Positions 20,912 to 54,227 of a DNA stretch of 64,000 nucleotides are shown one piece after another. Location of the stretch: the NCBI RefSeq assembly GCF_009931435.1, contig NZ_CP043414.1; one strand, given 5' to 3'. Each line of letters opens with the position of its first letter. Position 1 is the stretch's first letter. This DNA comes from Escherichia coli (GTDB lineage: Bacteria; Pseudomonadota; Gammaproteobacteria; Enterobacterales; Enterobacteriaceae). A program made the translations under genes and the position numbers. The notes beneath the pieces were generated by a model that saw nothing but the letters and a program-made list of their open reading frames with translations, ran no database searches and was not told the DNA's origin.

Positions 20912-22039
<1,128 letters not shown>

Positions 22040-29400: not shown

Positions 29401-29591
29401 TGATTTTCAACGATTTGCGGTGCCTGACCGGGATAGCTGGTTTTAATAATCACCTGCACATCGGAGAGATCCGGCAGCGCATCCACTGGCGTGTTAATGA
29501 TAGTCCAGGTGCCCCAGATACTCAGAAACAACGCGCCGATCAGCACCAGAAAACGGTTCGCCACCGAGCGACGAATAATCCATTCAATCAT
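26448..29591 (-). CDS. cusA: Copper/silver efflux RND transporter CusA
   Basis: 1047-aa [50 protein letters not shown]... Confidence 0.95.
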
Positions 29592-29602
29592 TGGTTATTC
29601 CC

Positions 29603-30826: not shown

Positions 30827-30841
30827 CTCATTAAACCTGGG

Positions 30842-31174: not shown

Positions 31175-31197
31175 TTATTCTCTCCTGGAGTTAAAAT

Positions 31198-32580: not shown

Positions 32581-32649
32581 AGGCACATAATTTCTGGTGA
32601 TTTTATGCCGCCAACTTTACACGCCAGGCTCTGATTTTCCGGTGACAGG

Positions 32650-32671
32650 AAAATGACAAAATTGTCATTTT
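32650..32671. promoter_or_regulatory. CusR-box palindrome in the cusC / cusR divergent promoter region
   Basis: aaaatgacaaaattgtcatttt is a perfect inverted repeat (AAAATGACAA / TTGTCATTTT) matching the CusR binding site as I recall it. Confidence 0.75.
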
Positions 32672-32736
32672 GCCAATAAGCGATTGCCATCTGATCCCGC
32701 TACTCTAGAATTGCCCGGGCAACATGCGGAGGAAAT

Positions 32737-33420
32737 ATGAAACTGTTGATTGTCGAAGATGAAAAGAAAACCGGCGAATACTTAACCAAAGGGTTAACCG
32801 AGGCCGGTTTTGTGGTTGATTTGGCCGATAACGGGCTGAATGGATATCATCTGGCGATGACAGGTGATTATGACCTGATAATCCTCGATATTATGCTGCC
32901 GGACGTGAACGGCTGGGATATTGTGCGCATGTTGCGTTCCGCCAATAAAGGGATGCCGATTCTGTTGCTTACCGCGCTTGGCACCATTGAACATCGCGTC
33001 AAGGGGCTGGAGCTGGGAGCGGATGACTATCTGGTGAAGCCGTTCGCTTTTGCTGAACTGCTGGCACGGGTGCGCACTCTACTGCGGCGCGGGGCGGCGG
33101 TAATTATCGAAAGTCAGTTTCAGGTTGCCGATTTAATGGTTGATCTGGTCAGCCGCAAAGTCACCCGCAGCGGCACGCGCATCACTTTGACCAGTAAAGA
33201 ATTTACTCTGCTGGAGTTTTTCCTCCGCCATCAGGGTGAAGTGCTGCCCCGCTCGCTTATCGCCTCGCAGGTGTGGGACATGAATTTCGACAGCGACACT
33301 AACGCTATTGATGTGGCGGTGAAGCGGCTACGCGGCAAAATCGACAATGATTTCGAGCCAAAGTTAATTCAGACCGTACGCGGCGTAGGTTACATGCTTG
33401 AGGTGCCGGATGGCCAGTAA
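32737..33420 (+). CDS. cusR: Copper-responsive response regulator CusR (OmpR family)
   Basis: 227-aa [31 protein letters not shown]... Confidence 0.93.
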
Positions 33421-34852
33421 GCCGTTTCAGCGCCCGTTTTCGCTGGCAACCCGCCTGACCTTTTTTATCAGCCTTGCCACCATTGCAGCGTTTTTCGTCT
33501 TTGCCTGGATCATGATCCACTCGGTAAAAGTGCATTTTGCCGAGCAGGATATTAATGATTTAAAAGAGATTAGCGCCACATTCAAGCGCGTTCTTAATCA
33601 TCCCGAAGAGACACAAGCCCGACGCTTAATGACGCTGGAAGATATCGTCAGTGGTTATTCCAACGTGTTGATTTCTCTGGCAGATAGCCACGGTAAAACG
33701 GTGTATCACTCCCCCGGTGCGCCGGATATCCGCGAGTTTGCACGTGATGCCATACCCGATAAAGACGCTCGGAGCGGCGAGGTGTATCTCCTTTCCGGCC
33801 CGACAATGATGATGCCAGGCCACGGTCACGGGCATATGGAACACAGCAACTGGCGGATGATTAACTTGCCGGTTGGCCCGTTGGTGGACGGCAAACCGAT
33901 TTATACGCTCTACATCGCGCTGTCTATCGATTTTCATCTTCATTACATTAATGATTTGATGAATAAACTTATTATGACCGCATCGATCATCAGCATCCTG
34001 ATCGTCTTTATCGTGCTGCTGGCGGTACATAAAGGCCACGCGCCAATTCGCAGCGTCAGCCGTCAAATCCAGAACATTACCTCGAAAGATCTCGACGTTC
34101 GCCTCGATCCACAGACCGTGCCCATTGAACTCGAACAACTGGTGCTGTCGTTCAACCATATGATCGAGCGTATCGAGGATGTCTTTACCCGCCAGTCCAA
34201 TTTCTCAGCGGATATCGCCCACGAAATTCGCACGCCGATTACGAATCTTATAACGCAAACGGAAATCGCCCTCAGCCAGTCGCGCAGCCAGAAGGAGCTG
34301 GAAGATGTGCTCTACTCTAATCTCGAAGAGCTGACGCGAATGGCGAAAATGGTCAGCGATATGCTGTTTCTCGCTCAGGCCGATAACAACCAGTTAATCC
34401 CCGAAAAGAAAATGCTCAACCTGGCGGATGAAGTCGGCAAAGTGTTCGATTTTTTCGAGGCGTTAGCGGAAGATCGCGGCGTGGAGTTGCGGTTTGTTGG
34501 TGACGAGTGTCAGGTTGCGGGCGATCCGCTGATGTTGCGTCGGGCGTTAAGCAACCTGCTTTCTAACGCCCTGCGTTATACGCCGCCCGGAGAGGCAATT
34601 GTAGTGCGCTGCCAGACGGTCGATCACCAGGTGCAAGTTACCGTCGAAAACCCCGGTACGCCCATTGCGCCCGAGCATTTACCGCGTTTGTTTGACCGTT
34701 TCTACCGCGTTGATCCTTCCCGCCAGCGAAAAGGTGAAGGTAGCGGTATTGGGCTGGCGATAGTGAAATCGATTGTTGTCGCGCATAAAGGCACGGTTGC
34801 GGTAACGTCAGATGCGCGGGGAACAAGGTTTGTTATCATATTACCCGCTTAA
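33410..34852 (+). CDS. cusS: Copper-sensing histidine kinase CusS
   Basis: 480-aa product from the ATG at 33410 ([29 protein letters not shown]...), H-box [10 protein letters not shown]; start overlaps the cusR stop. Confidence 0.92.
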
Positions 34853-35001
34853 TCCTTCAGCAATCGGCAACTTTTATAACCAGTGTAAAAATAACGTGCC
34901 GCAATAATCCTACCTATTAATGATAAAAAGCTGTCACAATTCATAAAAAACTTTAATATACGCCACCCTAAACATAACCAGCGTTAATGTAAGGTTTTTG
35001 T

Positions 35002-37239
35002 GTGGACTGGCTTCTTGATGTTTTTGCAACCTGGCTATATGGCTTAAAAGTAATCGCGATAACGTTAGCGGTCATCATGTTCATCAGCGGGCTGGACGAT
35101 TTTTTTATTGATGTCGTCTACTGGGTACGCCGCATTAAACGCAAGTTGAGTGTTTATCGCCGCTACCCGCGAATGAGTTACCGCGAACTGTATAAACCAG
35201 ATGAAAAACCGTTAGCGATTATGGTTCCGGCGTGGAATGAAACGGGCGTCATCGGCAATATGGCCGAGCTGGCGGCGACCACGCTCGACTATGAAAACTA
35301 TCATATCTTTGTTGGCACCTACCCCAACGACCCCGATACTCAGCGTGATGTTGACGAAGTGTGCGCTCGCTTCCCAAACGTGCATAAGGTAGTCTGCGCT
35401 CGTCCTGGCCCCACCAGCAAAGCCGACTGCCTGAACAACGTGCTGGACGCCATCACCCAGTTTGAGCGTAGCGCCAATTTCGCTTTTGCTGGTTTTATTC
35501 TGCATGACGCCGAAGACGTAATTTCACCGATGGAATTGCGTCTGTTCAACTATCTGGTCGAGCGTAAAGATCTGATTCAGATCCCGGTATACCCATTCGA
35601 ACGCGAATGGACGCACTTCACCAGCATGACTTACATTGATGAGTTTTCAGAACTGCATGGCAAAGATGTTCCGGTGCGTGAAGCCCTCGCCGGACAGGTG
35701 CCCAGCGCAGGCGTCGGTACTTGTTTCAGCCGCCGCGCCGTGACCGCACTGTTAGCTGACGGTGACGGTATTGCTTTCGACGTGCAGAGTCTTACTGAAG
35801 ATTACGACATTGGTTTCCGCCTGAAAGAAAAAGGTATGACGGAAATTTTTGTCCGTTTTCCGGTGGTGGACGAAGCCAAAGAACGCGAGCAGCGTAAATT
35901 TTTACAGCACGCGCGGACGTCAAACATGATCTGCGTGCGCGAATATTTCCCCGATACCTTTTCGACGGCGGTTCGACAAAAGTCTCGCTGGATCATCGGC
36001 ATTGTTTTCCAGGGCTTTAAAACCCATAAATGGACCTCCAGCCTGACACTCAACTACTTTCTCTGGCGCGACCGCAAAGGGGCAATCAGTAACTTTGTCA
36101 GCTTCCTCGCGATGCTGGTGATGATCCAGCTTTTGCTGTTACTGGCGTATGAAAGTTTGTGGCCCGATGCCTGGCATTTCCTTTCTATTTTCAGCGGCAG
36201 CACATGGTTAATGACCCTGCTGTGGCTAAACTTTGGTTTGATGGTTAACCGCATCGTGCAGCGGGTGATTTTTGTCACTGGCTACTACGGTCTGACGCAG
36301 GGGCTGCTATCTGTCCTGCGTCTTTTCTGGGGCAACCTGATTAACTTCATGGCCAACTGGCGCGCGTTAAAACAGGTGCTTCAACACGGCGATCCACGTC
36401 GCGTCGCGTGGGATAAAACAACGCATGACTTCCCCAGCGTCACTGGCGATACCCGCTCGTTGCGCCCGTTAGGTCAAATTCTGCTGGAAAATCAGGTCAT
36501 CACTGAAGAACAACTCGATACGGCACTGCGTAATCGTGTCGAAGGTCTACGCCTGGGCGGTTCAATGCTGATGCAGGGGCTGATTAGCGCCGAACAGCTG
36601 GCACAGGCACTGGCAGAGCAAAACGGCGTGGCGTGGGAGTCCATCGATGCCTGGCAGATCCCTTCTTCGCTGATTGCCGCGATGCCGGCCTCCGTGGCGC
36701 TGCATTATGCGGTGCTACCGCTGCGTCTGGAAAATGATGAGTTAATTGTCGGCAGTGAAGATGGTATTGACCCGGTTTCGCTGGCAGCCCTGACGCGTAA
36801 AGTTGGACGCAAAGTGCGTTACGTCATTGTTCTGCGAGGACAAATTGTCACCGGATTACGTCACTGGTATGCACGTCGACGCGGTCACGATCCACGGGCA
36901 ATGTTGTACAATGCGGTTCAGCATCAGTGGCTCACGGAACAACAGGCCGGTGAAATCTGGCGGCAATATGTGCCGCATCAGTTCCTGTTCGCCGAAATAC
37001 TGACCACGCTCGGTCATATTAATCGTTCAGCAATTAACGTGTTGTTATTGCGCCATGAACGCAGTTCTCTGCCGCTCGGCAAGTTTTTGGTCACCGAAGG
37101 CGTTATCAGCCAGGAAACGTTGGATCGCGTCCTGACAATTCAGCGCGAATTACAAGTTTCGATGCAATCACTATTACTCAAAGCAGGTTTAAACACAGAA
37201 CAGGTTGCGCAACTGGAGTCCGAAAATGAAGGAGAATAA
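35002..37239 (+). CDS. nfrB: Phage N4 adsorption protein NfrB (inner membrane glycosyltransferase-like)
   Basis: 745-aa ORF with GTG start, MDWLLDVFATWLYGLKVIAITLAVIMF... Confidence 0.9.
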   Translation: MDWLLDVFATWLYGLKVIAITLAVIMFISGLDDFFIDVVYWVRRIKRKLSVYRRYPRMSYRELYKPDEKPLAIMVPAWNETGVIGNMAELAATTLDYENYHIFVGTYPNDPDTQRDVDEVCARFPNVHKVVCARPGPTSKADCLNNVLDAITQFERSANFAFAGFILHDAEDVISPMELRLFNYLVERKDLIQIPVYPFEREWTHFTSMTYIDEFSELHGKDVPVREALAGQVPSAGVGTCFSRRAVTALLADGDGIAFDVQSLTEDYDIGFRLKEKGMTEIFVRFPVVDEAKEREQRKFLQHARTSNMICVREYFPDTFSTAVRQKSRWIIGIVFQGFKTHKWTSSLTLNYFLWRDRKGAISNFVSFLAMLVMIQLLLLLAYESLWPDAWHFLSIFSGSTWLMTLLWLNFGLMVNRIVQRVIFVTGYYGLTQGLLSVLRLFWGNLINFMANWRALKQVLQHGDPRRVAWDKTTHDFPSVTGDTRSLRPLGQILLENQVITEEQLDTALRNRVEGLRLGGSMLMQGLISAEQLAQALAEQNGVAWESIDAWQIPSSLIAAMPASVALHYAVLPLRLENDELIVGSEDGIDPVSLAALTRKVGRKVRYVIVLRGQIVTGLRHWYARRRGHDPRAMLYNAVQHQWLTEQQAGEIWRQYVPHQFLFAEILTTLGHINRSAINVLLLRHERSSLPLGKFLVTEGVISQETLDRVLTIQRELQVSMQSLLLKAGLNTEQVAQLESENEGE

Positions 37240-40198
37240 CCTTAATCGCGTCATCGGATGGTCTGGTTTACTGCTGACGTCTTTATTGAGTACCAGCGCA
37301 CTCGCAGACAATATCGGCACCAGCGCAGAAGAGCTGGGGCTGAGCGATTATCGCCATTTTGTTATTTATCCCCGTCTCGATAAGGCGCTGAAGGCACAGA
37401 AAAATAACGACGAAGCAACCGCCATCCGCGAATTTGAATATATACACCAGCAGGTGCCGGATAATATTCCGCTGACTTTATACCTTGCGGAAGCCTATCG
37501 CCATTTTGGTCATGATGACCGGGCGCGGCTGTTGCTTGAGGATCAACTGAAACGTCACCCAGGAGATGCCCGACTTGAGCGCAGTCTGGCGGCTATTCCA
37601 GTTGAAGTGAAAAGCGTTACGACTGTTGAAGAACTGCTTGCCCAGCAAAAAGCGTGCGACGCTGCGCCGACCCTGCGTTGTCGCAGTGAAGTCGGGCAGA
37701 ATGCCCTGCGGCTGGCACAATTACCTGTCGCCAGAGCGCAACTGAACGATGCGACGTTTGCTGCATCGCCGGAAGGAAAAACGCTGCGAACCGATCTGCT
37801 GCAACGCGCAATCTACCTGAAACAATGGTCCCAGGCAGATACGCTATACAATGAAGCACGCCAGCAGAACACATTAAGCGCGGCAGAACGCCGTCAGTGG
37901 TTTGACGTGCTTCTTGCCGGGCAGCTGGATGATCGGATCCTGGCGCTGCAATCACAGGGGATCTTCACCGATCCGCAGTCATATATTACTTACGCGACCG
38001 CGCTGGCTTATCGTGGCGAGAAAGCACGCCTCCAGCATTATCTCATTGAAAATAAGCCGCTGTTTACCACGGACGCACAAGAGAAAAGTTGGCTCTATCT
38101 GTTATCTAAATACAGCGCCAACCCCGTTCAGGCGTTGGCGAATTATACGGTACAGTTTGCCGATAACCGCCAGTATGTTGTTGGCGCGACGCTACCGGTG
38201 CTGTTAAAAGAAGGTCAGTACGACGCAGCGCAAAAACTGCTCGCCACCCTCCCCGCCAATGAAATGCTTGAGGAGCGTTATACCGTCAGCGTGGCGACTC
38301 ATAACAAGGCTGAAGCTCTGCGTCTGGCACGATTGCTGTATCAGCAAGAACCGACAAATCTTACCCGCCTGGATCAACTGACCTGGCAACTGATGCAGAA
38401 CGAGCAGTCACGCGAAGCTGCCGATTTGTTGCTGCAACGCTATCCCTTCCAGGGCGATGCGCGCGTCAGCCAGACTTTAATGACGCGACTAGCGTCTCTG
38501 CTGGAAAGTCATCCTTACCTGGCAACTCCGGCGAAGGTGGCGATTTTATCGAAACCCTTACCGCTGGCGGAGCAACGTCAGTGGCAAAGTCAGTTGCCGG
38601 GTATTGCAGATAATTGCCCAGCAATCGTTCGCTTGCTGGGCGATATGTCGCCTTCCTACGATGCCGCCGCCTGGAACCGTCTGGCAAAGTGTTATCGGGA
38701 CACGCTACCCGGTGTGGCGTTGTATGCATGGCTTCAGGCCGAACAACGGCAACCGAACGCCTGGCAACATCGTGCGGTAGCCTATCAGGCGTATCAGGTT
38801 GAGGATTACGCCACCGCACTGGCGGCCTGGCAGAAAATCAGTCTTCACGACATGAGCAATGAGGATCTGCTTGCTGCTGCCAATACCGCCCAGGCGGCAG
38901 GAAATGGTGCGGCTCGCGATCGCTGGCTTCAGCAGGCAGAACAACGTGGGCTGGGAAACAATGCCCTCTACTGGTGGCTGCATGCGCAACGTTACATTCC
39001 TGGTCAGCCGGAACTCGCACTGAACGATCTCACGCGCTCAATCAATATTGCGCCTTCTGCCAACGCTTACGTTGCGCGGGCGACAATTTATCGCCAACGT
39101 CATAATGTCCCGGCGGCGGTGAGTGATTTGCGCGCCGCTCTGGAACTGGAACCGAATAATAGCAACACCCAGGCAGCGCTCGGTTACGCCTTGTGGGATA
39201 GCGGTGATATCGCACAGTCGCGGGAAATGCTCGAACAGGCGCATAAAGGGCTACCGGACGATCCGGCACTTATCCGACAACTGGCCTACGTGAACCAGCG
39301 TCTGGATGATATGCCTGCGACGCAGCACTACGCCCGTCTGGTGATTGATGACATTGATAATCAGGCGCTGATAACCCCACTGACCCCAGAGCAAAATCAG
39401 CAACGCTTCAATTTCCGCCGTCTGCATGAGGAGGTCGGTCGCCGCTGGACGTTCAGTTTCGATTCTTCTATCGGCTTGCGTTCCGGCGCAATGAGTACCG
39501 CTAACAATAATGTTGGCGGCGCAGCGCCAGGGAAAAGCTATCGTAGCTACGGGCAACTGGAAGCCGAGTACCGCATCGGACGCAATATGCTGCTGGAAGG
39601 CGACCTGCTCTCGGTTTACAGCCGTGTATTTGCCGATACCGGAGAAAACGGGGTGATGATGCCGGTGAAAAATCCGATGTCCGGCACCGGTCTGCGCTGG
39701 AAGCCGCTGCGCGATCAGATCTTTTTCCTCGCCGTCGAACAGCAATTGCCGCTGAACGGACAAAACGGCGCATCCGATACCATGCTGCGCGCCAGCGCCT
39801 CATTCTTTAATGGCGGCAAATACAGCGACGAATGGCACCCGAACGGTTCAGGCTGGTTTGCCCAAAACCTGTACCTCGATGCGGCGCAATATGTCCGCCA
39901 GGATATTCAGGCGTGGACGGCAGATTATCGCTTAAGCTGGCATCAGAAGGTGGCGAACGGACAGACTATTGAGCCTTACGCTCACGTTCAGGACAACGGT
40001 TATCGTGATAAAGGCACTCAGGGCGCGCAGCTTGGCGGTGTCGGGGTCCGCTGGAATATCTGGACCGGCGAGACGCACTACGACGCCTGGCCGCACAAAG
40101 TCAGTCTCGGCGTCGAATATCAACATACCTTTAAGGCGATTAATCAACGTAACGGAGAGCGCAACAACGCGTTTCTCACCATTGGAGTGCACTGGTAA
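37226..40198 (+). CDS. nfrA: Phage N4 adsorption outer membrane protein NfrA
   Basis: 990-aa product from the ATG at 37226 (MKENNLNRVIGWSGLLLTSLLSTSALA...); overlaps the nfrB 3' end. Confidence 0.9.
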   Translation: MKENNLNRVIGWSGLLLTSLLSTSALADNIGTSAEELGLSDYRHFVIYPRLDKALKAQKNNDEATAIREFEYIHQQVPDNIPLTLYLAEAYRHFGHDDRARLLLEDQLKRHPGDARLERSLAAIPVEVKSVTTVEELLAQQKACDAAPTLRCRSEVGQNALRLAQLPVARAQLNDATFAASPEGKTLRTDLLQRAIYLKQWSQADTLYNEARQQNTLSAAERRQWFDVLLAGQLDDRILALQSQGIFTDPQSYITYATALAYRGEKARLQHYLIENKPLFTTDAQEKSWLYLLSKYSANPVQALANYTVQFADNRQYVVGATLPVLLKEGQYDAAQKLLATLPANEMLEERYTVSVATHNKAEALRLARLLYQQEPTNLTRLDQLTWQLMQNEQSREAADLLLQRYPFQGDARVSQTLMTRLASLLESHPYLATPAKVAILSKPLPLAEQRQWQSQLPGIADNCPAIVRLLGDMSPSYDAAAWNRLAKCYRDTLPGVALYAWLQAEQRQPNAWQHRAVAYQAYQVEDYATALAAWQKISLHDMSNEDLLAAANTAQAAGNGAARDRWLQQAEQRGLGNNALYWWLHAQRYIPGQPELALNDLTRSINIAPSANAYVARATIYRQRHNVPAAVSDLRAALELEPNNSNTQAALGYALWDSGDIAQSREMLEQAHKGLPDDPALIRQLAYVNQRLDDMPATQHYARLVIDDIDNQALITPLTPEQNQQRFNFRRLHEEVGRRWTFSFDSSIGLRSGAMSTANNNVGGAAPGKSYRSYGQLEAEYRIGRNMLLEGDLLSVYSRVFADTGENGVMMPVKNPMSGTGLRWKPLRDQIFFLAVEQQLPLNGQNGASDTMLRASASFFNGGKYSDEWHPNGSGWFAQNLYLDAAQYVRQDIQAWTADYRLSWHQKVANGQTIEPYAHVQDNGYRDKGTQGAQLGGVGVRWNIWTGETHYDAWPHKVSLGVEYQHTFKAINQRNGERNNAFLTIGVHW

Positions 40199-41089
40199 AT
40201 GCGTAAGTTCATTTTCGTATTGCTGACACTGCTTTTGGTCAGCCCTTTTTCCTTTGCGATGAAAGGTATTATCTGGCAACCACAAAACCGTGATAGTCAG
40301 GTTACCGATACCCAGTGGCAGGGGCTGATGAGTCAGTTACGTTTGCAAGGCTTCGATACCCTGGTTTTGCAATGGACCCGTTACGGCGATGCATTCACCC
40401 AGCCAGAACAGCGCGCGTTATTGTTTAAGCGTGCCGCAGCTGCGCAACAGGCTGGCCTGAAGCTGATTGTCGGGCTGAATGCCGATCCGGAATTTTTTAT
40501 GCACCAGAAACAGTCATCCGCGGCGCTGGAAAGCTATCTTAATCGCCTGCTGGCTGCCGATCTCCAGCAAGCCAGATTATGGAGCGCCGTACCTGGCGTA
40601 ACGCCGGATGGCTGGTACATCAGCGCGGAAATTGACGACCTGAACTGGCGCAGCGAAGCCGCCCGTCAGCCTTTGCTGACATGGTTAAACAACGCGCAGC
40701 GGTTGATTAGCGATGTTTCAGCAAAACCGGTTTATATCAGTAGTTTTTTCGCCGGAAACATGTCGCCCGATGGCTATCGCCAACTGCTGGAACACGTTAA
40801 AGCAACCGGCGTTAATGTCTGGGTACAGGATGGCAGCGGCGTGGATAAACTTACTGCTGAACAGCGTGAACGTTATCTACAGGCCAGCGCCGATTGCCAA
40901 AGCTCCGCCCCAGCAAGCGGCATTGTTTATGAACTGTTTGTCGCCGGCAAAGGCAAAACCTTTACAGCGAAACCGAAACCGGATGCAGAGATCGCCTCGC
41001 TGTTAGCGAAACGTTCCTCTTGTGGTAAAGACACGCTCTATTTCTCTCTGCGCTATTTGCCCGTCGCGCACGGCATTCTCGAGTATTAA
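40199..41089 (+). CDS. ybcH: Uncharacterised protein YbcH
   Basis: 296-aa ORF MRKFIFVLLTLLLVSPFSFAMKGIIWQPQNRDSQ... starting directly after the nfrA stop. Confidence 0.85.
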   Translation: MRKFIFVLLTLLLVSPFSFAMKGIIWQPQNRDSQVTDTQWQGLMSQLRLQGFDTLVLQWTRYGDAFTQPEQRALLFKRAAAAQQAGLKLIVGLNADPEFFMHQKQSSAALESYLNRLLAADLQQARLWSAVPGVTPDGWYISAEIDDLNWRSEAARQPLLTWLNNAQRLISDVSAKPVYISSFFAGNMSPDGYRQLLEHVKATGVNVWVQDGSGVDKLTAEQRERYLQASADCQSSAPASGIVYELFVAGKGKTFTAKPKPDAEIASLLAKRSSCGKDTLYFSLRYLPVAHGILEY

Positions 41090-41271
41090 ATCTCCTCCAG
41101 GTAAGTCGGGTACGACCTGGCTTACCTCTTTCGCTCTCGTCAGAATTCCATCAAGATTAATTGCTAAAAAGCGTGCTAAAGAAAGAAGATCGTTATCGGC
41201 GAACGGGCCGATCACTCATGCAGGAAGCATAGATCCTTTGAGCGGAGTTTCTGATATCTGAGGAGTGCGAA

Positions 41272-42033
41272 ATGCAATTGAGCAGCAGTGAACCTTGCGT
41301 GGTGATCCTGACCGAAAAAGAGGTAGAGGTAAGCGTCAATAACCATGCCACGTTTACCCTTCCGAAAAATTACCTGGCCGCCTTCGCGTGCAACAATAAC
41401 GTCATTGAACTCTCAACGTTAAATCACGTATTAATCACCCACATCAACCGTAACATCATCAACGATTATCTGTTGTTTTTAAATAAGAACTTAACCTGTG
41501 TAAAGCCCTGGTCGCGGCTGGCTACCCCGGTTATCGCTTGTCATAGCCGTACACCGGAAGTGTTCCGGCTAGCCGCCAACCACAGCAAGCAGCAACCCAG
41601 CAAACCCTGCGAAGCGGAGTTGACGCGCGCATTGCTTTTTACCGTATTGTCTAACTTTCTTGAGCAATCGCGGTTTATTGCCCTACTGATGTATATCTTA
41701 CGCAGCAGCGTCCGCGACAGCGTCTGCCGCATTATTCAAAGCGATATTCAGCATTACTGGAATCTGCGAATTGTCGCCAGTTCGCTCTGTTTAAGCCCCA
41801 GCCTGCTCAAAAAGAAATTAAAAAACGAAAATACCAGCTATAGCCAGATTGTCACAGAGTGTCGTATGCGTTACGCCGTACAGATGTTATTGATGGATAA
41901 CAAAAATATCACTCAGGTGGCACAATTGTGTGGGTATAGCAGCACGTCGTACTTTATCTCTGTTTTTAAGGCGTTTTACGGCCTGACACCGTTGAATTAT
42001 CTCGCCAAACAGCGACAAAAAGTGATGTGGTGA
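41272..42033 (+). CDS. envY: AraC-family transcriptional regulator EnvY
   Basis: 253-aa ORF with C-terminal AraC helix-turn-helix (...VAQLCGYSSTSYFISVFKAFYGLTPLNY); AT-rich. Confidence 0.85.
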   Translation: MQLSSSEPCVVILTEKEVEVSVNNHATFTLPKNYLAAFACNNNVIELSTLNHVLITHINRNIINDYLLFLNKNLTCVKPWSRLATPVIACHSRTPEVFRLAANHSKQQPSKPCEAELTRALLFTVLSNFLEQSRFIALLMYILRSSVRDSVCRIIQSDIQHYWNLRIVASSLCLSPSLLKKKLKNENTSYSQIVTECRMRYAVQMLLMDNKNITQVAQLCGYSSTSYFISVFKAFYGLTPLNYLAKQRQKVMW

Positions 42034-42078
42034 AGGGCAAAGCGGAAACAGATAAGACTGGCATAAATGAAGAAGAAA

Positions 42079-42123
42079 TGGCGCGCCCTGCAGGATTCGA
42101 ACCTGCGGCCCACGACTTAGAAG
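42079..42123 (-). pseudogene. pauD: 3' fragment of tRNA-Arg(UCU) argU (pauD-like), the prophage attachment-site core (attR)
   Basis: Reverse complement CTTCTAAGTCGTGGGCCGCAGGTTCGAATCCTGCAGGGCGCGCCA matches the 3' 45 nt of argU as I recall it (anticodon loop through the acceptor CCA); the 5' half of the tRNA is absent. Confidence 0.8.
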
Positions 42124-42546
42124 TTCCTAGAACGACATTTTAAGTCAACAACTTACCGCGCCATCTCTGCGCTCACACGTCCCACTACCTCAAAACATGT
42201 AAAGCCTTGCAAGCCATTGCGAGGCCTTATGTGTCTCAGTTTTGTCCCTCTTTTTTGTACTAAAAAACATAGTAATTGAGGATAAACCTCATGCTATTTT
42301 CGCTTATATGCCTCTAAAGGCATGGCACTTAAATAGATAAAAGCACCACAAAAGCATAAAAAAACCACACAGTAAAACCGAAATATGAAACAATAACAGA
42401 TAATTAAACCAAAAACAGATAGCGCATTGTGATAATCATTCAATACTAAACAAAATATAAACAGTGGAGCAATATGTAATTGACTCATTAAGTTAGATAT
42501 AAAAAATACATATTCAATCATTAAAACGATTGAATGGAGAACTTTT

Positions 42547-43500
42547 ATGCGGGCGAAACTTCTGGGAATAGTCCTGACAACCCCTATTGCGATCAGCTCT
42601 TTTGCTTCTACCGAGACTTTATCGTTTACTCCTGACAACATAAATGCGGACATTAGTCTTGGAACTCTGAGCGGAAAAACAAAAGAGCGTGTTTATCTAG
42701 CCGAAGAAGGAGGCCGAAAAGTCAGTCAACTCGACTGGAAATTCAATAACGCTGCAATTATTAAAGGTGCAATTAATTGGGATTTGATGCCCCAGATATC
42801 TATCGGGGCTGCTGGCTGGACAACTCTCGGCAGCCGAGGTGGCAATATGGTCGATCAGGACTGGATGGATTCCAGTAACCCCGGAACCTGGACGGATGAA
42901 AGTAGACACCCTGATACACAACTCAATTATGCCAACGAATTTGATCTGAATATCAAAGGCTGGCTCCTCAACGAACCCAATTACCGCCTGGGACTCATGG
43001 CCGGATATCAGGAAAGCCGTTATAGCTTTACAGCCAGAGGTGGTTCCTATATCTACAGTTCTGAGGAGGGATTCAGAGATGATATCGGCTCCTTCCCGAA
43101 TGGAGAAAGAGCAATCGGCTACAAACAACGTTTTAAAATGCCCTACATTGGCTTGACTGGAAGTTATCGTTATGAAGATTTTGAACTCGGTGGCACATTT
43201 AAATACAGCGGCTGGGTGGAATCATCTGATAACGATGAACACTATGACCCGGGAAAAAGAATCACTTATCGCAGTAAGGTCAAAGACCAAAATTACTATT
43301 CTGTTGCAGTCAATGCAGGTTATTACGTCACACCTAACGCAAAAGTTTATGTTGAAGGCGCATGGAATCGGGTTACGAATAAAAAAGGTAATACTTCACT
43401 TTATGATCACAATAATAACACTTCAGACTACAGCAAAAATGGAGCAGGTATAGAAAACTATAACTTCATCACTACTGCTGGTCTTAAGTACACATTTTAA
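42547..43500 (+). CDS. ompT: Outer membrane protease OmpT (omptin)
   Basis: 317-aa ORF MRAKLLGIVLTTPIAISSFASTETLSFTPDNINADISLG... ending ...ITTAGLKYTF. Confidence 0.93.
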   Translation: MRAKLLGIVLTTPIAISSFASTETLSFTPDNINADISLGTLSGKTKERVYLAEEGGRKVSQLDWKFNNAAIIKGAINWDLMPQISIGAAGWTTLGSRGGNMVDQDWMDSSNPGTWTDESRHPDTQLNYANEFDLNIKGWLLNEPNYRLGLMAGYQESRYSFTARGGSYIYSSEEGFRDDIGSFPNGERAIGYKQRFKMPYIGLTGSYRYEDFELGGTFKYSGWVESSDNDEHYDPGKRITYRSKVKDQNYYSVAVNAGYYVTPNAKVYVEGAWNRVTNKKGNTSLYDHNNNTSDYSKNGAGIENYNFITTAGLKYTF

Positions 43501-43749
43501 GAACGCCAACTAAAATTTCCCCGAGGTGAAAATCGCCCCGGGGAATAACTAGCCATTTCAATGTAACAATTAACCCTTAAAATAAACCCAGAAGGTTATT
43601 AACTAAATCACATAGAAAACCATCAATTATAGTATGTATAAAATAGGCGACAGCAACCCAATTACAAATTAATGGTTCCAGAATATCACATCAAAAAAAA
43701 CGCTGTATAATATTATAATTAACATGTAGACAACTTGTAATAAACATTA

Positions 43750-44499
43750 TCAGTCAATTGTTTTGTTTATTCCATCTGTGACGCCGATTATTTTCTCAAA
43801 ATAATGAGATGGCGTGACACCATAATAATCTTTAAATGCACATATGAAATATGAAGTACTGTTATAGCCACATTTCTGGGCTACGACATTGATAGAATAA
43901 GAGTTTGAAGTTATGAGTTTTTTTGCATACCTCATCCTAGTATCTCTCAATATTTCAGTAAATGACGTTCCTTCATCCCTTAATCTTTTTTTTATTAAAC
44001 TTTCACTCGTATAAATCAATTCCGCAATATCTTTTAAATGCCATTGCCGCTCAATATTAAAACTGATTATTCCAGTAATTTTACAGGTAAATGTATTTAT
44101 ATTTGTTAGTATAAATGAATTTACACTTTCGCGTTTTTTGAACATGGCAAGTAAGGATATACATAGTCTTTCTTTTAACCAAAGGGAGTGTGAGTCTGCT
44201 ATTTTAATCCCTTCAAACAGAGAAAAAACAAGCGATAATGGAGGTTCCTCTTCAGCAATATAGCCATTCTTATCAAGAGTAAATTTGCCAGGCAGCTCAT
44301 TATTCACGTCGATAAAAAAGGATAAACATGTTTTCTTATCTATATCAACAATTCTTAGTTTAGAGGGGCATACTGGTAACTCCCTTCTAATTTTGTCGCT
44401 TACAATAAACAATGAATTTTTTTTGAACGAGATAACTCTCCTGTTTATAATTAAATCAAATGATTGACAGATGAAAACTACGGAGCAAACATAATCCAT
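43750..44499 (-). CDS. appY: AraC-family transcriptional regulator AppY
   Basis: 249-aa [36 protein letters not shown]...; very AT-rich, with a long AT-rich upstream region (44500-45100). Confidence 0.88.
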
Positions 44500-45058
44500 C
44501 TTGCACCTATCATAAAATTAAAACAAGTTGATAGTAGTCAAATAACAACCAATTAAATACACAATCATAATCAGGATGATGTGCATTTATATTTTTATAC
44601 ACAAAATTATAGTTTGCAAATTTTAATAAATTTCATTTAAGATTAAATTATTATATGTATGTTGTTTTTTATTCTAACTTATTTCAAAGTTACATTTTTC
44701 AACGCTTACTATGCTTTTTATTAACATAAACTCACTACAACGCACCTGAAACCTCTTGCTATATATATGTCAACCGTTTGAATTTAAAATAAAAAGAGTA
44801 TCATTTTTACTTGCATTTCTTATCAAGTCACATTCAACAACAGTAAAAAAACATTATTAGAACCATTCAATTAACAAAAAACCAACATCCAGCTTGCTTA
44901 ATTTTTCTTTATTAAACGATATTGAAAATCAATTGATAAAATACATCTAAACAACCTTTTGGGGCGCAAAAGCATAACATCAAACAAACAAATAACACAC
45001 CGAAAAAACTCACAATTAATAACCTATGATATACATACTGTTTATTATGGTTGAATAA

Positions 45059-45200
45059 GCCACTCGATATCTGGTGCTACGGAAGTGTCCACACGGTTTA
45101 GCAGCACCCGATACTTTTTTCAGGCTTCCAGCAACGATCTTTCTTCCTCCGTTGCGATTTCCAGATCTACAGCATCCTGCAGTGGCGCAATATACTCACT
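45059..45200. repeat. Direct repeat copy A of the tfa 3'-end segment (partner at 46119-46260)
   Basis: About 140 bp at roughly 85-90 percent identity to 46119-46260, by manual alignment. Confidence 0.7.
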
Positions 45201-45305
45201 GAATTCCTGGATGTAGAACTGTGTAGTGACGGTCTTCCAGCCATTCGGCTCCTGCTGTATTGAAGCATACCAGGCTATTTCAATATCGCTATGCTGCGGC
45301 AGCAT
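45120..45305 (-). pseudogene. tfaX: Tail fibre assembly protein C-terminal remnant (tfaX-like)
   Basis: 61-aa ORF ending ...[23 protein letters not shown], homologous only to the C-terminal part of the intact Tfa at 46095-46679; lies in a duplicated roughly 140-bp segment. Confidence 0.7.
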
Positions 45306-45443: not shown

Positions 45444-46040
45444 TTGGGAGTATCAAATCGGCTTGCATGGGGATGTCCTACAAAGGAACACCTTCTTCCA
45501 CACCTTCTTCCACACTTTCTGGAACATTTAGGTAACAACCATCTGGATATTGGTGTTGGAACTGGGTTTTACCTTACTCACGTACCTGAGAGTAGTCTGA
45601 TATCTTTAATGGATTTGAACGAAGCTAGCCTGAACGCGGCATCTACAAGGGCTGGGGAATCAAAAATTAAACATAAAATTAGCCATGATGTTTTTGAACC
45701 TTATCCCGCGGCGTTACATGGTCAATTTGATTCCATTTCCATGTCTTACCTTCTTCACTGCCTGCCTGGAAATATATCTACAAAAAGCTGTGTAATACGC
45801 AATGCGGCGCAGGCCTTAACTGACGATGGAACTCTATACGGAGCCACAATTCTTGGCGATGGAGTTGTGCACAATAGCTTCGGTCAAAAACTGATGCGCA
45901 TTTACAATCAGAAAGGCATCTTTTCAAACACAAAAGATTCCGAAGAAGGCTTAACACATATACTCTCAGAGCATTTCGAGAATGTTAAAACCAAGGTTCA
46001 AGGTACTGTAGTAATGTTTTCCGCTTCAGGAAAAAAATAG
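45444..46040 (+). CDS. ybcY: Putative class I SAM-dependent methyltransferase (YbcY-like), possibly N-terminally truncated or a pseudogene
   Basis: 198-aa ORF with glycine-rich motif I (LDIGVGTGFY); the only in-frame start is a TTG, with no upstream ATG or GTG before the stop at 45375. Confidence 0.55.
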   Translation: MGVSNRLAWGCPTKEHLLPHLLPHFLEHLGNNHLDIGVGTGFYLTHVPESSLISLMDLNEASLNAASTRAGESKIKHKISHDVFEPYPAALHGQFDSISMSYLLHCLPGNISTKSCVIRNAAQALTDDGTLYGATILGDGVVHNSFGQKLMRIYNQKGIFSNTKDSEEGLTHILSEHFENVKTKVQGTVVMFSASGKK

Positions 46041-46094: not shown

Positions 46095-46679
46095 TTACTC
46101 CCTGACAGGGTTCGTAGGCCACTCAATATCAGGTGCAGTTGATGTATCAACACGGTTCAGCAACACCCGATATTTTTTCCAGGCTTCCAGCAATGAGGTT
46201 TCTTCCTCCGTTGCGATTTCCAGATCTACAGCATCCTGAAGTGGCGCAATATGCTCACTGGCTACCTGCATCAGGCTGTTTTTTGTTTCTTCCGCCTCCC
46301 GAATCCGGAACAGTTTTTCTGCTTCTGCATCTTTCACCCAGGCTGTACCGTTCCACTTCTGAAACTCCCCTTCCGGCGATAACCAGGTAACATTTTCCGG
46401 TAACGGACCGAGTTCAGAAATAAATAACGCGTCCCCTGACGCTACGTCATAAACCGTTTTACCCCGATGATCTTCAACGAGATGCCACGATGACTCATCA
46501 CTGTTGAAAACAGCCACGAAGCCAGCTGGAATATCTGGCGGTGCAATGTCGGTACTGTTTGCTGGCAGACCTGTATGAGGCGGAATATATGCGTCACCTT
46601 CACCAATAAATTCATTAGTTCCGGCCAGCAGATTATAAATTGTTATGGTCCGTGGTTGTTCACTCATTCTGAATGCCAT
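46095..46679 (-). CDS. tfa: Tail fibre assembly protein Tfa
   Basis: 194-aa [56 protein letters not shown]...; start overlaps the stf stop. Confidence 0.9.
46119..46260. repeat. Direct repeat copy B of the tfa 3'-end segment (inside the intact tfa)
   Basis: Partner of 45059-45200. Confidence 0.7.
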
Positions 46680-49600
46680 TATGCAAGCCTCACAATATAG
46701 TTAAATGCGATGTTTTTGACGGTGTTTTCCGCGTTACCAGCAGCGTTAACGGTGATGGTGTGTCCATGTGAGCCAATCGCAACCGAGTGCGTATGAGCAC
46801 CAATACCGACAGTATGTGCGTGTGCACCTGCGCTTGCTGCAGTGCCGGACAGTGAGTGGGTATGAGCACCATCTGATGATGTCTTCCCTGCATTACGAGT
46901 CTGGCCACTACCGCTTGTTGTGCTCATAATCCCCGCGCTTGGATTTGAAATCGCGGTATAACCATTAGGGAAAATGCTCGTGTTCGTGCCACCAAATGCA
47001 CCGGAACTCTTGTGTTGGTGCGCACCGGCACTATTTGCGGTCCCGCTAATACTATGGGTATGCGCCCCGGTGTTATTCGTGGATTTGGTTCCGTAATCAA
47101 ACGACGATGTGGTTTTCGTCCCCAAATCCGTACTGGATGCGCTGGCGCTGTGGGTATGCGATTTAATGCCGTCCTGTTCCTGAGACAATACGGCCCGACC
47201 ACTGGCAGGTTTGCCCTTAATCGTCCAGCCACGCATATCAGGGATCACGCCTGACGGATAAGCCGCTGCAAGTTTCGGGTAGGCAGATTTGTCAAAAGCC
47301 TGCCCCTGCATCAGGGCATAGCCAGACGGAACGGTATCTGATGGCCACGGGATTGGTGCGCCGACTGGGTAGCTTTCTGGTGGAAGATTTTTCGAGGTAT
47401 AAACTTCTGCCCAGTCTTCCTCAAAACCATAGCCATCTCTTGAGGAACGGTAGAACAGACCTCCATTTCTGTAATGCGCCTTCATCTGCAGGGTCCGGCA
47501 ACTTCCGACTCCGGTATAGAAGTTAACCAGAATATAGCTGTCGCCAGAGCGGGTGACATTGTAAGCGCCTGATTCGGCATTCCAGGGAACGCCACCATCC
47601 GCATCGGCATATGTATCCGTTGCCCTTCTGGCAAAAGCAGCCACATGCGCGGCGGTTAAAGTAATATCTTTGGAACCATCAAACTCAACACCAGAAACCA
47701 GTCTTGGCGTTTGCAGCTTTGTTGCTGTTAATGCATTACCGTTCAGACTTGCGGACAGTTTGGTTCCAATAATCAGTTCGCCGGTTGCGTTATCAATAGC
47801 AAACGGTCTTAATGTATTCCAGCCACCATAAACATCACCTTGATTGGTAAGCAGCAGGTAAGTTTTAGCGCCATCATTACGCCATAATGCACCATACTCC
47901 CCACCTATCATTCGAATCTGATTACCACCACGCGCTACAATTTCGTCTGTGGCAAAAAGTTTTTTGCACGACAAGTTATCGTTAACGATTAACGAATGAG
48001 ACTCATAAAAACCACGCCCACTCTTAAAATCAAGGATAACGTCCGCCGCGATACATTCAGTCGCCGGATTTGTTGCCCCAAACTTATAGGTCGTATCATT
48101 AACAACGAGATCAGCACCAGGTGCGGATATTGACAGGCCATCTTCGATAAACGCAAAAACAGGGAAAGCAGCGCCATCAACATAGAACACAGAGCGCAAA
48201 TCATCGCCCTTATTACTCATCATTATTGAGTGGATGGCTCGTTCATTGTTTTGATATTGCCAGAACATTCCATAAGCATAACGCCCCCTGTCAGTCCAGC
48301 CACCAGGCATAACAAATCCGTTAAACTCGCAGTTATTCATCGGATCGCCTGCGGTTCGCGTTGCCGTGGTGATAATGACCCTTGATGCCAGTTCGCTTAC
48401 TGAGCCAGCAGAACGCATAACAACAACAGGGTAATATTTTCCAGATGTTGCACCTGCAGGAGCGTTAACCCGCACATAACGCATACCACGCTTATCAGCA
48501 AAGTCTGTTTTACTGACCGCGTTAATGTTGTTCAGGAAGCGTCCCTTATCGGGTATATCAGCGCCGTTCTGGTCTTTCTGCAGACGTTTCTCTGCATTGT
48601 CATAGGCTGATTTTACTGCCTTTGGCGTTGCCGCCAGCGTTTCAGACGTACTGTTGGTCGCACTGCTGAGCTGTACTACCCCCTTTTTCGTCGTGCTCGC
48701 ATCCTCAAGCGCCACGGCGGATGCAATATCCTCTGCCCGTTTTGCCGCTGTCTCGGCGCGCGTTGCCGCGGATTCCGCCGTACTTTTGCTCTGAGCTGCC
48801 GCCGTCGCACTGCCAGCTGCCTCTGTCGCCTTCGTGGATGCCGTCGTGGCGCTGCTCTTCGCTGCTGACGCTTGTCTGGTCGCCTCATCTTTTGAAGCAG
48901 ACGCAGATGATGCCGATGACGCCGCCGAACTGGCTGACGATGCGGCAGCCGTTTTTGAGGATTCTGCGCTGGTTTCCGACGCTTTCGCGTTCGTTTCGGA
49001 TGTCTTCGCTGCGGAAGCAGAACTCGCTGCTGCGCTGGCCTGTTCAGTGGCTTCGCCAGCCTTCGTTGTGGCTGTTGAAGCAGACGATGCGGCACTTTCT
49101 GCCGACTTTCCGGCAGCGGTGGCACTGGCTGAGGCCTGCCCGGCACTTGTTGACGCGGCGCTGGCAGATGATGCAGCCGCTGTTTTTGAGTCTGCTGCTG
49201 CGGAGGCACTCTGTTCCGCTGCCGTCTCAGAAGACTTAGCGTTCGTCTCGGACGTTTTTGCCGCCTTCGCGGAATTTCCTGCCGCCGTTGCCGAGGAAGC
49301 TGCGCTACTGGCGCTCGAGGATGCGTTCGTTTCTGATGATTTCGCTGCCTCTTTTGAGGCCGCCGCATCCCTGGCTGAGGTGGCAGCTTCTGACGCTTTC
49401 CTGGTCGCGGTGGATGCAGAAGTGGCTGCTGATTGTTGTGACGCTGCGGCATTCGTTTCTGACGTTTTCGCCGCACCGGCACTGGTGGCCGCCGCGCTTT
49501 TTGAGGACTCTGCAGCGGCAGCACTTTTTTCCGCTTCAGTGGCCTTTGCTGATGCCGTTCCTGCGCTGGAAGATGCTGACTGAGCCGACGACGCGGCCTG

Positions 49601-50086
49601 TCCGGCTGACGTGCTGGCTGCGCGTGCTGAGCCTGCAGCATCAGTCGCATGGGTTGCCGCCTCACTGGCAGATGTGCTGGCATCGCCGGCTGACTTCTTC
49701 GCGGCTGCCGTGTTTTGTGCCACCGCGGACGCGTTACGCGCCACCTCTTCCACCATCAGTTCAAAACGGCGCAGAGCCTCCGGACGGGCATCATCCTCCG
49801 TCATGGCACCGAGAAAATCATTCAGCGTACCGGGTCGGGAATCTTCATACACGGTGATGGTCCCGGCATGTGACGGCGGGAATCCTTCCACCAACAGAAT
49901 AACGCTGTACTGACCGTACTCAACGTCCATGCTGTAACGCCCGGCTTCATCCGGATTTTCTGAGGCCAGCGTGTTCACCACCACCGCGGTGCTGTTACGT
50001 TTTGCTTTCAGCTGGATTGTGCAGTTCTGTACCGGTTTTCCTGTGCCGTCTTTCAGTACACCTGAAATCTTTACTGCCATATTCAC
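46679..50086 (-). CDS. stf: Side tail fibre protein Stf (lambda Stf / StfR-like)
   Basis: 1135-aa [40 protein letters not shown]...; long Ala/Ser/Thr-rich repetitive shaft; C-terminal His-rich GAHTHS-type motifs and ...[13 protein letters not shown]. Confidence 0.9.
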
Positions 50087-50144: not shown

Positions 50145-50744
50145 TCAGAACTTATAACCGACACCCACGATGAAACCGTCAGTGCGCCAGTCGCCACTGC
50201 CGGAGCCTTCATAAGCAATATCAATGGCCACGGATTCGGTCGGGTTAAACTACACGCCAGCTCCCCACGCCAGAGACGTGTTGCTGTGGCGACCGTCATC
50301 ACTTCCGGTCAGCACGTCGTGCGTTTTCCCCTTGTTGTCAGTTACGCGGAGATAATCCCCGGAGAAAGTCGACACACGGCTGTAAGCCATACCCGCCATC
50401 GCATACGCGCTGAACCATTCATTCACGCGCACAGACGGCCCCACCATCACGCTGAACCAGCGGTTACGCACGGAATCTTCATGCCAGCGGGTATTGCTGT
50501 AACGGGTAAGCTGGCGATTCTTGTCTCCTGCATAGCTGAATGACGTCACCAGCCCCAGTGTGTCCGTAAACTCATAACGGTATTTCACGTTAATCCCGTT
50601 AAGATCATCGCTGCCGGGAACGTTCGTCGAGGCATGAAGATACCCCGCGCTCAGCGTGGACTGATGTTCAGATGCCCATGCAGGCGCACCGGATACGGTC
50701 AGACAAATGGCTGCGGACAAAATGGCGGCATAAAGTTTACGCAT
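50145..50744 (-). pseudogene. lom: Lom-like outer membrane protein gene interrupted by an in-frame amber codon
   Basis: 164-aa ORF MRKLYAAILSAAICLTVSGAPAWASEHQSTLSAGY... stops at TAG (50252-50250); the same frame continues FNPTESVAIDIAYEGSGSGDWRTDGFIVGVGYKF to a TGA at 50147-50145, with Q expected at the TAG position. Confidence 0.75.
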
Positions 50745-50813
50745 AATTACCTCTCGCTTTTCTGCAATAAAAAAGGCACCATTTCTGGTGCCCTTATATG
50801 GGTTATAACAATT

Positions 50814-53800
50814 TCAACGAATACTGATGCCGGAAGCGGCTTTTTTGGTCACAATCACCGTACAGTCGGTGATATTACCTGCCCACTGATTGCCTTTATG
50901 GAAAACCTTAAACTCCAGAGTGACGCTTCCCCTGCCACTCGGCATATCAATAACCGCACTGTAGCTACCGGGAATGGCCCCTTTAGTTTCTCTGGATGCG
51001 ATTAATACACCGTTTTTGCGAACTTCAAAACCATAACCCGTGTATCTTGTACCTCCCGGGTTATTACCACTTCCCGGATCGCTATACGCTATTCCGTTAA
51101 AGATAATGGGCGGAATAATGATTTGACGGTCAAAGTTATGATCATCGCTGATGGTGACTGTAACCGTCCCGTTTGGTGTTTCCGTGTTACCCCACGTACC
51201 AGCCTGTTTCGGAAATGATTTGGATACAGCTTTAACGAAGTCACCTCTGACCTGAGTCGCCTCCAGCATGCCCTTAATTGTACAGTTTTCATTTACCGTG
51301 ACATTGTTGAGCGTCCCGGCGTTCGCATTCACACTGCCACTGATATCCGCATTTTTAGCGGTCAGCTTTCCGTCTGATGTCAGGGAAAATACCGGTGGAT
51401 TTCCACCGCTGGTAATGGTGGGGGCCGTCAGGCGCTTCAGGAACACGTCGTTCATGAATATCTGGTTGCCCTGCGCCACAAACATCGGCGTTTCATTCCC
51501 GTTTGCCGGGTCAATAAACGCGATACGATTGGCGGCAACCAGAAACTGGCTCAGCTTGCCTTCCTCCGTGTCCTCCATGCTGAGGCCAATACCCGCGACA
51601 TAATGTTTGCCGTCTTTGGTCTGCTCAATTTTGACGCCCCACATCGCATTCCATTTATCGTTAGCGTCCTTCCACTCTTTCGAAAACTCATCCAGTCTGC
51701 TGGCGTTATCCTCCGTCAGATCAACTTTTTCCAGCAGCTCTTTACCGAGATGGGATTCGGTTATCTTGCCTTTGAAAAAATCCAGGTAACCTTCCGCATC
51801 ATCGCTCGCCCGACCAACAGCCTCCACGAATGCCGATTTGCCAACGGTGTTCACACTGCGAACGTAAAAATAATAATCATGGCCCGGTTTGATATTGATA
51901 CTGGCGGCTATCCAGTACAGTGCCGTACCAAGATAACGCGCGCTGGTTTCAACCTGCCTGATATCCGCAATCCGTTTTTCCGAGAACCAGAACTCAAACT
52001 GTACCGTCGGGTCATAAACCGCAAGATGCGGCGTGGCGGTTATCTGAAAATAGCCCGGCGTCAGCTCAATCCGCGACGGCGCTGCCGGTGCGGCAATCCG
52101 GAACGATACCGACGCCGGATCGCCCTGCTGTCCCCACGCATTTACCGCCCGGACTGTCAGCGTGTACCGTCCCAGCGCCAGTTGCGTGAAGCGGTATGTG
52201 GTTTCCGTCGTCCGGGCCGTGCTGACCAGCCGCTCACTGCCGTCATCCGCTGTTACGGTCAGACGGAGCAGGAAGCTCACGCCCTTCACCACCTTCGGCG
52301 TGTCCCAGCGCGCCAGCACCTGATATTCCCCGCTGTCTGCGGTGACTTCGGCAGTCAGGTGCTGCACCGCTGGCGGCGTGACACCATTCACCGTGCCGCT
52401 CTGGTCGCCGTCAAAGTGCGCCCCGTTATCCACGATGGCTTCTTTTTCCGGTACATGCTGCACGGCGGTGATGGCATACGTGCCGTCGTCGTTCTCACGG
52501 ATACTCACGCAGCGGAACAGGCGCTGGCGCAGCGTCGGCAGCTTCAGCCCCCACACGCTGTATTCAGCAACGCCGTCAGGAACACGGCTCACTTTCACCT
52601 TCACGCCGTCGGTGACGGACTGAACCTCCACGCTGACCGGATTGCCACTTCCGTCAACCAGGCTTATCAGCGTGGTACCGGAGGATGGCAGCGTGATTTC
52701 ACGGTCGAGCGTCAGCGTCCGGGTCTGGCTGTTTACCGCCAGCACGCGCCCGCCGGTGCTGATACCGGCATAGTCATCATCACAGATTTCAATGACATCG
52801 CCCGGCACATGGCGAAGCCCTTCTGCGCCCACGCTGAAGTCCACGGTCTGCGTTTCCAGCAGTTCTGTTTTAATCAGCCATAGCCCGGCGCGATGTGCCT
52901 GCCCCCGGCTGGTACAGCCAAAGGCATCCATCTTCGTGACGTTACGACCGTAACGGGCAATGGCCTGCGTGTCCTCCACAAGCTCTGTCGCCGTCTCCCA
53001 GCCGTTATTCGGGTCAATCCAGTTCACCTCAACGGCATTATGGCGGTCCTTCAGGGCGCTGAAGCTGTAGCGGAACGGCGCGCCATCATCCGGCATCACC
53101 ACATTACTGCGGTTATAGGTCCACACCTTATCCGATGGTCGGTCCTGCACGAACGTCAGCGTCTGCCCGTTCCATACCGGCATACAGCGCATCGCCGAGC
53201 AGAAATCACTGAGCACATCCCACGCCTTGCGCTGTGTGGTCAGGTACGCATTACAGGTGATGCGCGGCTCCGTGCCGCCAAAGCCGTCCGGCACTGACTG
53301 GTCGCAGTACTGGCCGATGACATACAGCGCCCATTTATCCACATCCGCCGCACCAAGACGTTTCCCCATGCCGTAGCGCGGATGGGTCAGCATATCCCAC
53401 AGACACCAGGCCATGTTGTTGCTGTATGCCGGTTTAAACGTTCCGTCCCAGATACCGCTGTATTGCCGCGTCTGCGGGTTATAGTTCGACGGCACCTGCA
53501 GAATGCGCCCGCGCAGATGATAATTACGGCTCACCTGCTGGCTGCCGAACTGCTCCGAATCCACCTGCACGCCGACCAGTGCCGTGTTCGGGTAGCCCTG
53601 TTTCACATCGATGATTTCGGTGTATGACGACCAGAGCGTTTTGTTCTGCAGCTGGTCTGTGGTGCTGTCCGGCGTCATCCTGCGCATCCGGATATTGAAC
53701 GGGCGCGGCGGCAGGTTACCCACCACCACCGAGGCCAGATACTGCGAGGTGGTTTTGCCCTTAATGGTGATGTCTTTTTCCGTCACCCAGCCACCATTAC

Positions 53801-54227
53801 GCTGGATCTGAACCAGCAGGCGGACTTCCGACGGATTCCTGTCCCCCTTTGAGGTGGTTTCCACCAGTGCCTGCACGCCGAAGGTAAAACGCAGTCGGTC
53901 AATGTTTGCCGACGTGATGGTCCGGGTGATCGGCGTGTCGTATTTCACTTCCGTACCCAGCACCGTCTCGGAGCCGGAGGATTCAAATCCCTCCGGCGGT
54001 GTCTGCTCCTGCTCACCGGCCCGGAACACCACCGTGACGCCGGAGATATTGGTATTCCCCTCACTGTCCAGCACTGGCGTACTGTTCAGCAGCACGCTTT
54101 TTAATCCATCCACCGGACCTTCAACCGGCCCTTCGCTGATGGCATCGATCACACTCAGCAACTGCGTGGACTTCAGGTTGTCCTTCGCTTCGCGCGGAGT
54201 ATGCCCCTTACTGCTGCCTTTACCCAT
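50814..54227 (-). CDS. J: Tail tip / host specificity protein J
   Basis: 1137-aa [57 protein letters not shown]..., lambda J-like over most of its length with a diverged C-terminus. Confidence 0.93.

Follow-up and report, generated by a model that had tools for sequence, protein, structure and literature searches.

Gene J of an Escherichia coli prophage carries a 434-type C-terminal receptor-binding domain, most likely directed at OmpC

The prophage tail genes and their chromosomal setting

Tail genes of a lambdoid prophage occupy part of the window, the stretch of 64,000 nucleotides of Escherichia coli DNA (contig NZ_CP043414.1, assembly GCF_009931435.1) that was analysed. The main features are as follows.

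50814–54227, minus strand: gene J (tail tip attachment/central tail fibre protein), 1137 aa, an intact ORF from the ORF list and its translation
51259–54227, minus strand: lambda-like J backbone (hub, FNIII/Ig domains, helical shaft, beta-prism), codons 1 to about 989, 95.7% nucleotide identity to lambda
50820–51227, minus strand: receptor-binding domain of J, 434 type, codons 1001–1136, Pfam PF12421 Ig_GpJ_C (E = 2e-25)
50772–50795, minus strand: intrinsic-terminator-like hairpin and T-run directly past the J stop, from a terminator scan
50145–50744, minus strand: lom-like gene (Ail/Lom/OmpX family), 434 type, with NCBIfam Ail/OmpX-type matches and an amber codon at 50250–50252
46679–50086, minus strand: side tail fibre gene stf, 1135 aa, with homologues annotated stfR in related genomes
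46095–46679, minus strand: tail fibre assembly gene tfa, 194 aa, 94% identical to lambda Tfa (orf-194)

Profile, domain order and position all place J with the lambda-type tail tip attachment proteins J (NF049904). The NCBIfam model NF049904 lambda_TipJ covers residues 1–1137 with 2290.7 bits against a cutoff of 1950, and a series of Pfam matches (Phage-tail_3, FNIII-A_GpJ, Ig_J, Ig_J_second, Phage_Tail_Tip and Ig_GpJ_C) runs in the order PF24801, PF13550, PF24421, PF24489, PF09327 and PF12421, i.e., hub, FNIII/Ig domains, tail-tip fibre and C-terminal receptor-binding domain. By ORF order the gene sits in the tail operon downstream of M, L, K and I and upstream of lom and stf; the long ORFs that precede it on the same strand are taken by us to be the lambda tail genes H, M, L, K and I, assigned by eye from their lengths and order. 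The window is collinear with phage 434 at 95.7% from gene M to stf, and in 434 a terminator is annotated at the site equivalent to 50772–50795. The part of J at issue, 50817–51290 on the minus strand, holds codons 980–1137 (the last 158) of the 1137-codon ORF, and its translation ends in ...KAASGISIR.

The lom-like gene is 98% identical in nucleotide sequence to 434 lom and is part of a segment without lambda homology. At codon 165, CAG has become TAG; the beta-barrel thereby loses its last 35 residues, and the gene is therefore probably a pseudogene. The side tail fibre, at 1135 aa, is compared with 774 aa for the Stf of Ur-lambda. Its N-terminal 404 aa are 73% identical to lambda orf-401, and about 230 aa at its C terminus are 69% identical to lambda orf-314, the lambda Stf tip. 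The protein also has extra Ala/Ser-rich repeats with several successive matches to lambda orf-401.

Two further pieces separate the prophage tail genes from appY. One is the surviving C-terminal part of a second tail fibre assembly gene (45059–45212, minus strand, 84% to lambda tfa), and the other is a 198-codon ORF (45444–46040, plus strand) whose counterpart in a related genome carries the annotation of a SAM-dependent methyltransferase with a frameshift. Left of the prophage end (window about 26000–44500) are found appY, ompT, envY and ybcH, along with what are presumably nfrA/nfrB (the phage N4 adsorption genes) and the cus genes, assigned by ORF length and the K-12 map. This flank places the prophage at the locus that in K-12 holds DLP12, a defective prophage. 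The window itself ends inside apparent head genes, as judged from ORF lengths.

J might be a decaying relic in a defective prophage that has ceased to contribute to infectious particles, its specificity mattering only as a reservoir for recombination. The nonsense codon in the adjacent lom-like gene, the DLP12-side location and the fact that the window shows only tail genes and some head genes all lean this way. However, J is a full-length ORF, as long as 434 J, with a receptor domain identical to that of active phages, and the visible tail genes are all long ORFs in lambda order (by eye), with stf and tfa open. We consider a relic fairly improbable.

The exchanged C-terminal cassette of J

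The original prediction had J lambda-like over its first roughly 980 residues and unlike lambda over the last roughly 150, and both parts are borne out when the J proteins of the window, lambda (NC_001416) and phage 434 (OL657226) are aligned. Over residues 1–950 the window protein is identical to lambda J at 932 of 950 positions (98%), while the last four alignment bins hold 37/50, 21/50, 15/50 and 13/43 identical residues. For the last 159 aa BLASTP gives 38% identity with three gaps, which excludes an essentially lambda-like C terminus. So sharp a fall, from 98% to less than 40%, is far more than chance variation would give. Near-identity to lambda J over about residues 990–1132, including loops L1–L4, would indicate a receptor domain of the lambda (LamB-binding) class, and this was not found in the window protein. 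At the DNA level, homology to lambda (95.7%) stops at window position 51258, about codon 990 of J, comes back weakly as a 59-bp patch in lom (50605) and resumes properly from 50272. The block replaced relative to lambda thus begins near codon 990 of J and reaches into lom, a length of roughly 1 kb.

Against phage 434 the picture is one of continuity, with 47–50 identical residues in every 50 up to alignment column 1000 and 95% identity (151/159) over the last 159 aa. The part that diverges from lambda coincides with the match to PF12421, described as [quoted passage not shown]. When 50,697 phage records were searched in translation, 74 were at 93–100% identity to this C terminus, and the remainder fell below 47%. 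In sequence terms the 434-type C terminus is therefore a discrete class, with phage 434 J as its prototype, and the window domain belongs to it both by its 95% identity to 434 and by its gpJ receptor-domain fold (Ig-like/beta-sandwich).

The class is widespread. Phage Ayreon, many Stx1a- and Stx2c-converting phages and PhiR49_1_star share the last 159 aa at 100% identity, and the C-terminal DNA of Ayreon, the Stx1a/Stx2c phages (LC7278xx) and PhiR49_1_star is 99.6–99.8% identical to the window. Of 5426 complete E. coli genomes, 2110 (about 39%) contain the 487-nt segment, with 651 records at 99% identity or better, and E. albertii and Shigella sonnei likewise have homologues of the J C terminus. 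A large protein database search with the same C terminus returned mostly short partial proteins, which were used for alignment and not for class counts. The host-range module is common to commensal-type prophages and to the Stx1a- and Stx2c-converting phages of E. coli O157.

The 434-type host-range class was already recognised by genetics in the 1970s. The C terminus of the window J is this classical host-range cassette, which is already known, already sequenced and extremely common. The original prediction was right in reading the region as a host-range cassette and did not recognise it as the classical, already characterised 434 type. Given how common the domain is in E. coli prophages, the finding is real but ordinary.

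Movement of the cassette between phages can be seen directly in the Stx2c phages. In phage PV98-693, the N-terminal two-thirds of J are only 70–85% identical in nucleotide sequence to the window. Identity reaches 92–97% in the fibre region (from about window position 52400) and 99–100% across the receptor-domain codons. A cassette that is 99–100% identical in phages whose J N-terminal parts are at 70–85% is direct evidence of cassette exchange: one receptor domain sits on diverged J backbones. With the divergent part of J corresponding to the PF12421 domain and forming a discrete class, the earlier proposal of a mosaic swap of a host-range cassette is supported. The segment of about 1 kb, with the 3' end of J and lom, illustrates how such modules move between lambdoid backbones, Stx-converting phages included.

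Phage Ayreon offers a second view of J modularity. Its J has 1165 aa, and the alignment to the window J is gapped near the fibre region. The alignment breaks at window positions 51644–51730, upstream of the receptor domain. This suggests that Ayreon J carries an extra segment of about 28 aa in the fibre region. As far as these sequences go, fibre length in J varies independently of the receptor domain.

Predicted fold and hypervariable stretches of the receptor domain

Residues 959–1137 of J were modelled with AlphaFold as a single chain, and 26 J C termini from several classes were aligned. The model is mostly beta, with a mean pLDDT of 80.5. The best Foldseek matches are 9wcb (the A8 gpJ–OmpC complex), 9wca (A8, closed), 8xck (lambda, closed) and 8xcj (the lambda gpJ–LamB complex), the top ones at E about 1e-16 and TM 0.68–0.69. 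A PDB sequence search with the C terminus matched no chains other than J-type tail tips, namely A8 (9wca/9wcb), lambda (8xcj, 8iyk and 8jvm) and, more weakly, a "J tail tip" (9oik). The structure prediction that had been proposed as a check of the C-terminal domain therefore gives the fold of solved porin-binding gpJ receptor domains (9wcb and 8xcj).

Across J classes a set of framework motifs is kept, namely DDxxFDRQ, NG, DMPxGxG and KK..GISI. Across the alignment of J C-terminal classes, column entropy is highest in four stretches, which the model places largely outside beta strands.

51174–51206, minus strand: hypervariable stretch 1, aa 1008–1018 (11 aa), an entropy peak that is largely non-strand, with Q1008K and A1009V relative to 434
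51042–51092, minus strand: hypervariable stretch 2, aa 1046–1062 (17 aa), with a 6-residue insertion relative to lambda
50964–50993, minus strand: hypervariable stretch 3, aa 1079–1088 (10 aa), an entropy peak in a predicted loop
50874–50906, minus strand: hypervariable stretch 4, aa 1108–1118 (11 aa), an entropy peak in a predicted loop

In lambda J, four bottom loops of the receptor domain, L1–L4, have been reported to insert into LamB. By analogy, the four variable stretches of the window J probably correspond to these receptor-contact loops.

The window allele differs from 434 J at eight positions in the last 159 aa (E980Q, S1004A, Q1008K, A1009V, N1019D, S1049D, R1099G and W1115R, with the window residue given first) and at two positions just upstream (A970S and V978I, same convention). 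About six of the eight belong to the receptor-binding domain proper, mostly within or beside the variable stretches, and S1049D and W1115R alter charge or bulk. The same positions of the domain vary within the class as a whole. Among 434-class cluster representatives, positions 1004, 1008, 1009, 1019, 1049, 1050, 1097, 1099, 1108, 1110 and 1115 are recurrently polymorphic; position 1049 in stretch 2 is S, D, T or E among 434-class alleles, and 1108, 1110 and 1115 in stretch 4 are polymorphic inside the class. Tryptophan at 1115 is a minority state, present in 4 of 28 cluster representatives. Positions 959–993 of the polymorphism table were disregarded as noise from misaligned fragment ORFs.

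This pattern of polymorphism fits fine-tuning of receptor contacts within the 434 class. It is unlikely, if conceivable, that the sub-allele defined by W1115, S1049, Q1008/A1009 and R1099 is tuned to other OmpC alleles than those of 434, or to another porin. If it were, polymorphism in the variable stretches of a very common cassette would be a record of an arms race with porin variation in E. coli.

Receptor assignment and relation to known J proteins

According to two reviews, OmpC is the receptor of phage 434, and lambda whose J is replaced by the 434 gene binds OmpC; in these reviews, 434 and lambda h434 hybrids use OmpC rather than LamB. A 2025 paper likewise handles 434 J as OmpC-targeting. 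Together with the 434-type domain, these reports support the earlier suggestion that the phage uses a receptor other than LamB, and they sharpen it to a 434-type domain that most likely binds OmpC. For this exact allele, OmpC rather than LamB is the likely receptor, by analogy with phage 434. A literature search found no receptor data for Ayreon, mEp460, the PhiR phages or the Stx1a/Stx2c phages, and a search pairing "h434" with OmpC gave no match.

The side tail fibres need to be considered in this context. The hybrid lambda h434 imm21 (OM418627) contains 434 J, lom, stf and tfa in one block (record positions 15505–21236), so the OmpC specificity cannot be assigned to J alone from the hybrid. 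On that basis the OmpC dependence of 434 could reside in the side tail fibres, with the 434-type J domain binding some other receptor, and the literature does describe the Stf of Ur-lambda as itself binding OmpC. However, lambda side fibres have been found dispensable for plaque formation, making adsorption faster while leaving titre on ompC mutants unaffected; J binds the essential receptor, and an absolute need for OmpC should therefore lie with J. In addition, the distal part of the 434 Stf (437 aa) is unrelated to the window Stf, and the fold and position of the window domain match those of solved porin-binding J domains. A side-fibre origin of the OmpC requirement seems highly improbable. 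If the tip of the window Stf retains the OmpC specificity of lambda, both fibres of the phage would depend on OmpC.

Natural prophage J C termini grafted onto lambda provide a close experimental parallel. In the A8 and 1A2 gpJ chimeras (9wca and 9wcb), with the junction near residue 964, such a C terminus switches lambda to OmpC, and the two chimeras differ in the OmpC variants that they accept. The possibility that the window domain is that of A8 or 1A2 was rejected from their published sequences, which place both in other classes at about 49% identity. As members of different classes, they provide no direct receptor evidence for the window allele. The J of Gifsy-1, which uses OmpC, OmpX and BtuB in Salmonella, was also set aside as a relative, with Salmonella records (Fels-1) only 46% identical.

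The chimeras also bear on whether the window sub-allele (Q1008, A1009, S1049, R1099 and W1115) recognises a porin such as OmpF, PhoE or NmpC/OmpN, or a different subset of OmpC variants. The differing OmpC preferences of A8 and 1A2 would favour such a shift, as would the gain of OmpF by lambda J through a few point mutations, described in the literature, and the placement of most substitutions relative to 434 in or beside the hypervariable stretches, at positions that are recurrently polymorphic in the class. On the other hand, the domain is 95% identical to that of 434, and its loops have the same lengths and mostly the same residues. Phage Ayreon, whose domain is identical, was isolated and forms plaques on a derivative of E. 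coli K-12, the host background of 434. We judge a changed receptor to be rather unlikely.

The overall explanation that we favour, and regard as likely, is a lambda-type J with a C-terminal receptor-binding domain of the phage 434 ("h434") class that most likely binds OmpC. The N-terminal residues, about 990 of them, would build the tail-tip hub and the central fibre as they do in lambda, and the last 140 or so would form a trimeric beta-sandwich. The four variable stretches, probably equivalent to the four bottom loops of lambda, would dock into an outer-membrane porin, most likely OmpC. By analogy with lambda–LamB and A8 gpJ–OmpC, binding would then open the tip and trigger DNA ejection. The domain was acquired as a recombination cassette of about 1 kb, made up of the J 3' end and lom, which is in circulation among lambdoid prophages of E. 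coli.

For annotation, the gain is a prophage central fibre that can be labelled 434 type, with OmpC as the probable receptor, and not LamB type. If the prophage is inducible, this label helps to predict which strains it can infect.

Placed beside the known systems, the window J shares its domain order with lambda gpJ (P03749; PDB 8xcj, 8xck and 8iyk), the LamB binder, and its receptor domain has the same fold, with TM 0.68–0.69 and 42% identity in the structural alignment, a figure that includes conserved upstream fibre residues. It differs from lambda gpJ in the sequence of all four variable stretches, in the length of two or three of them and in the reported receptor. Phage 434 J (UMO75286, OL657226), the "h434" host-range determinant, is 1137 aa long like the window J and about 97% identical to it overall. 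Loop lengths are the same, including the 17-aa stretch with the insertion, and so are the downstream terminator and the lom type; the side fibre is different, with 437 aa in 434 vs 1135 aa, partly lambda-like, in the window. A8 gpJ, the best structural match to the window model, shares the fold with different loop sequences, as does 1A2. A8 and 1A2 reach OmpC with quite different loops, which indicates that loop sequence is no simple predictor of the receptor. Counting the 434 type, at least three unrelated loop sets on the gpJ fold have been reported or inferred to reach OmpC.
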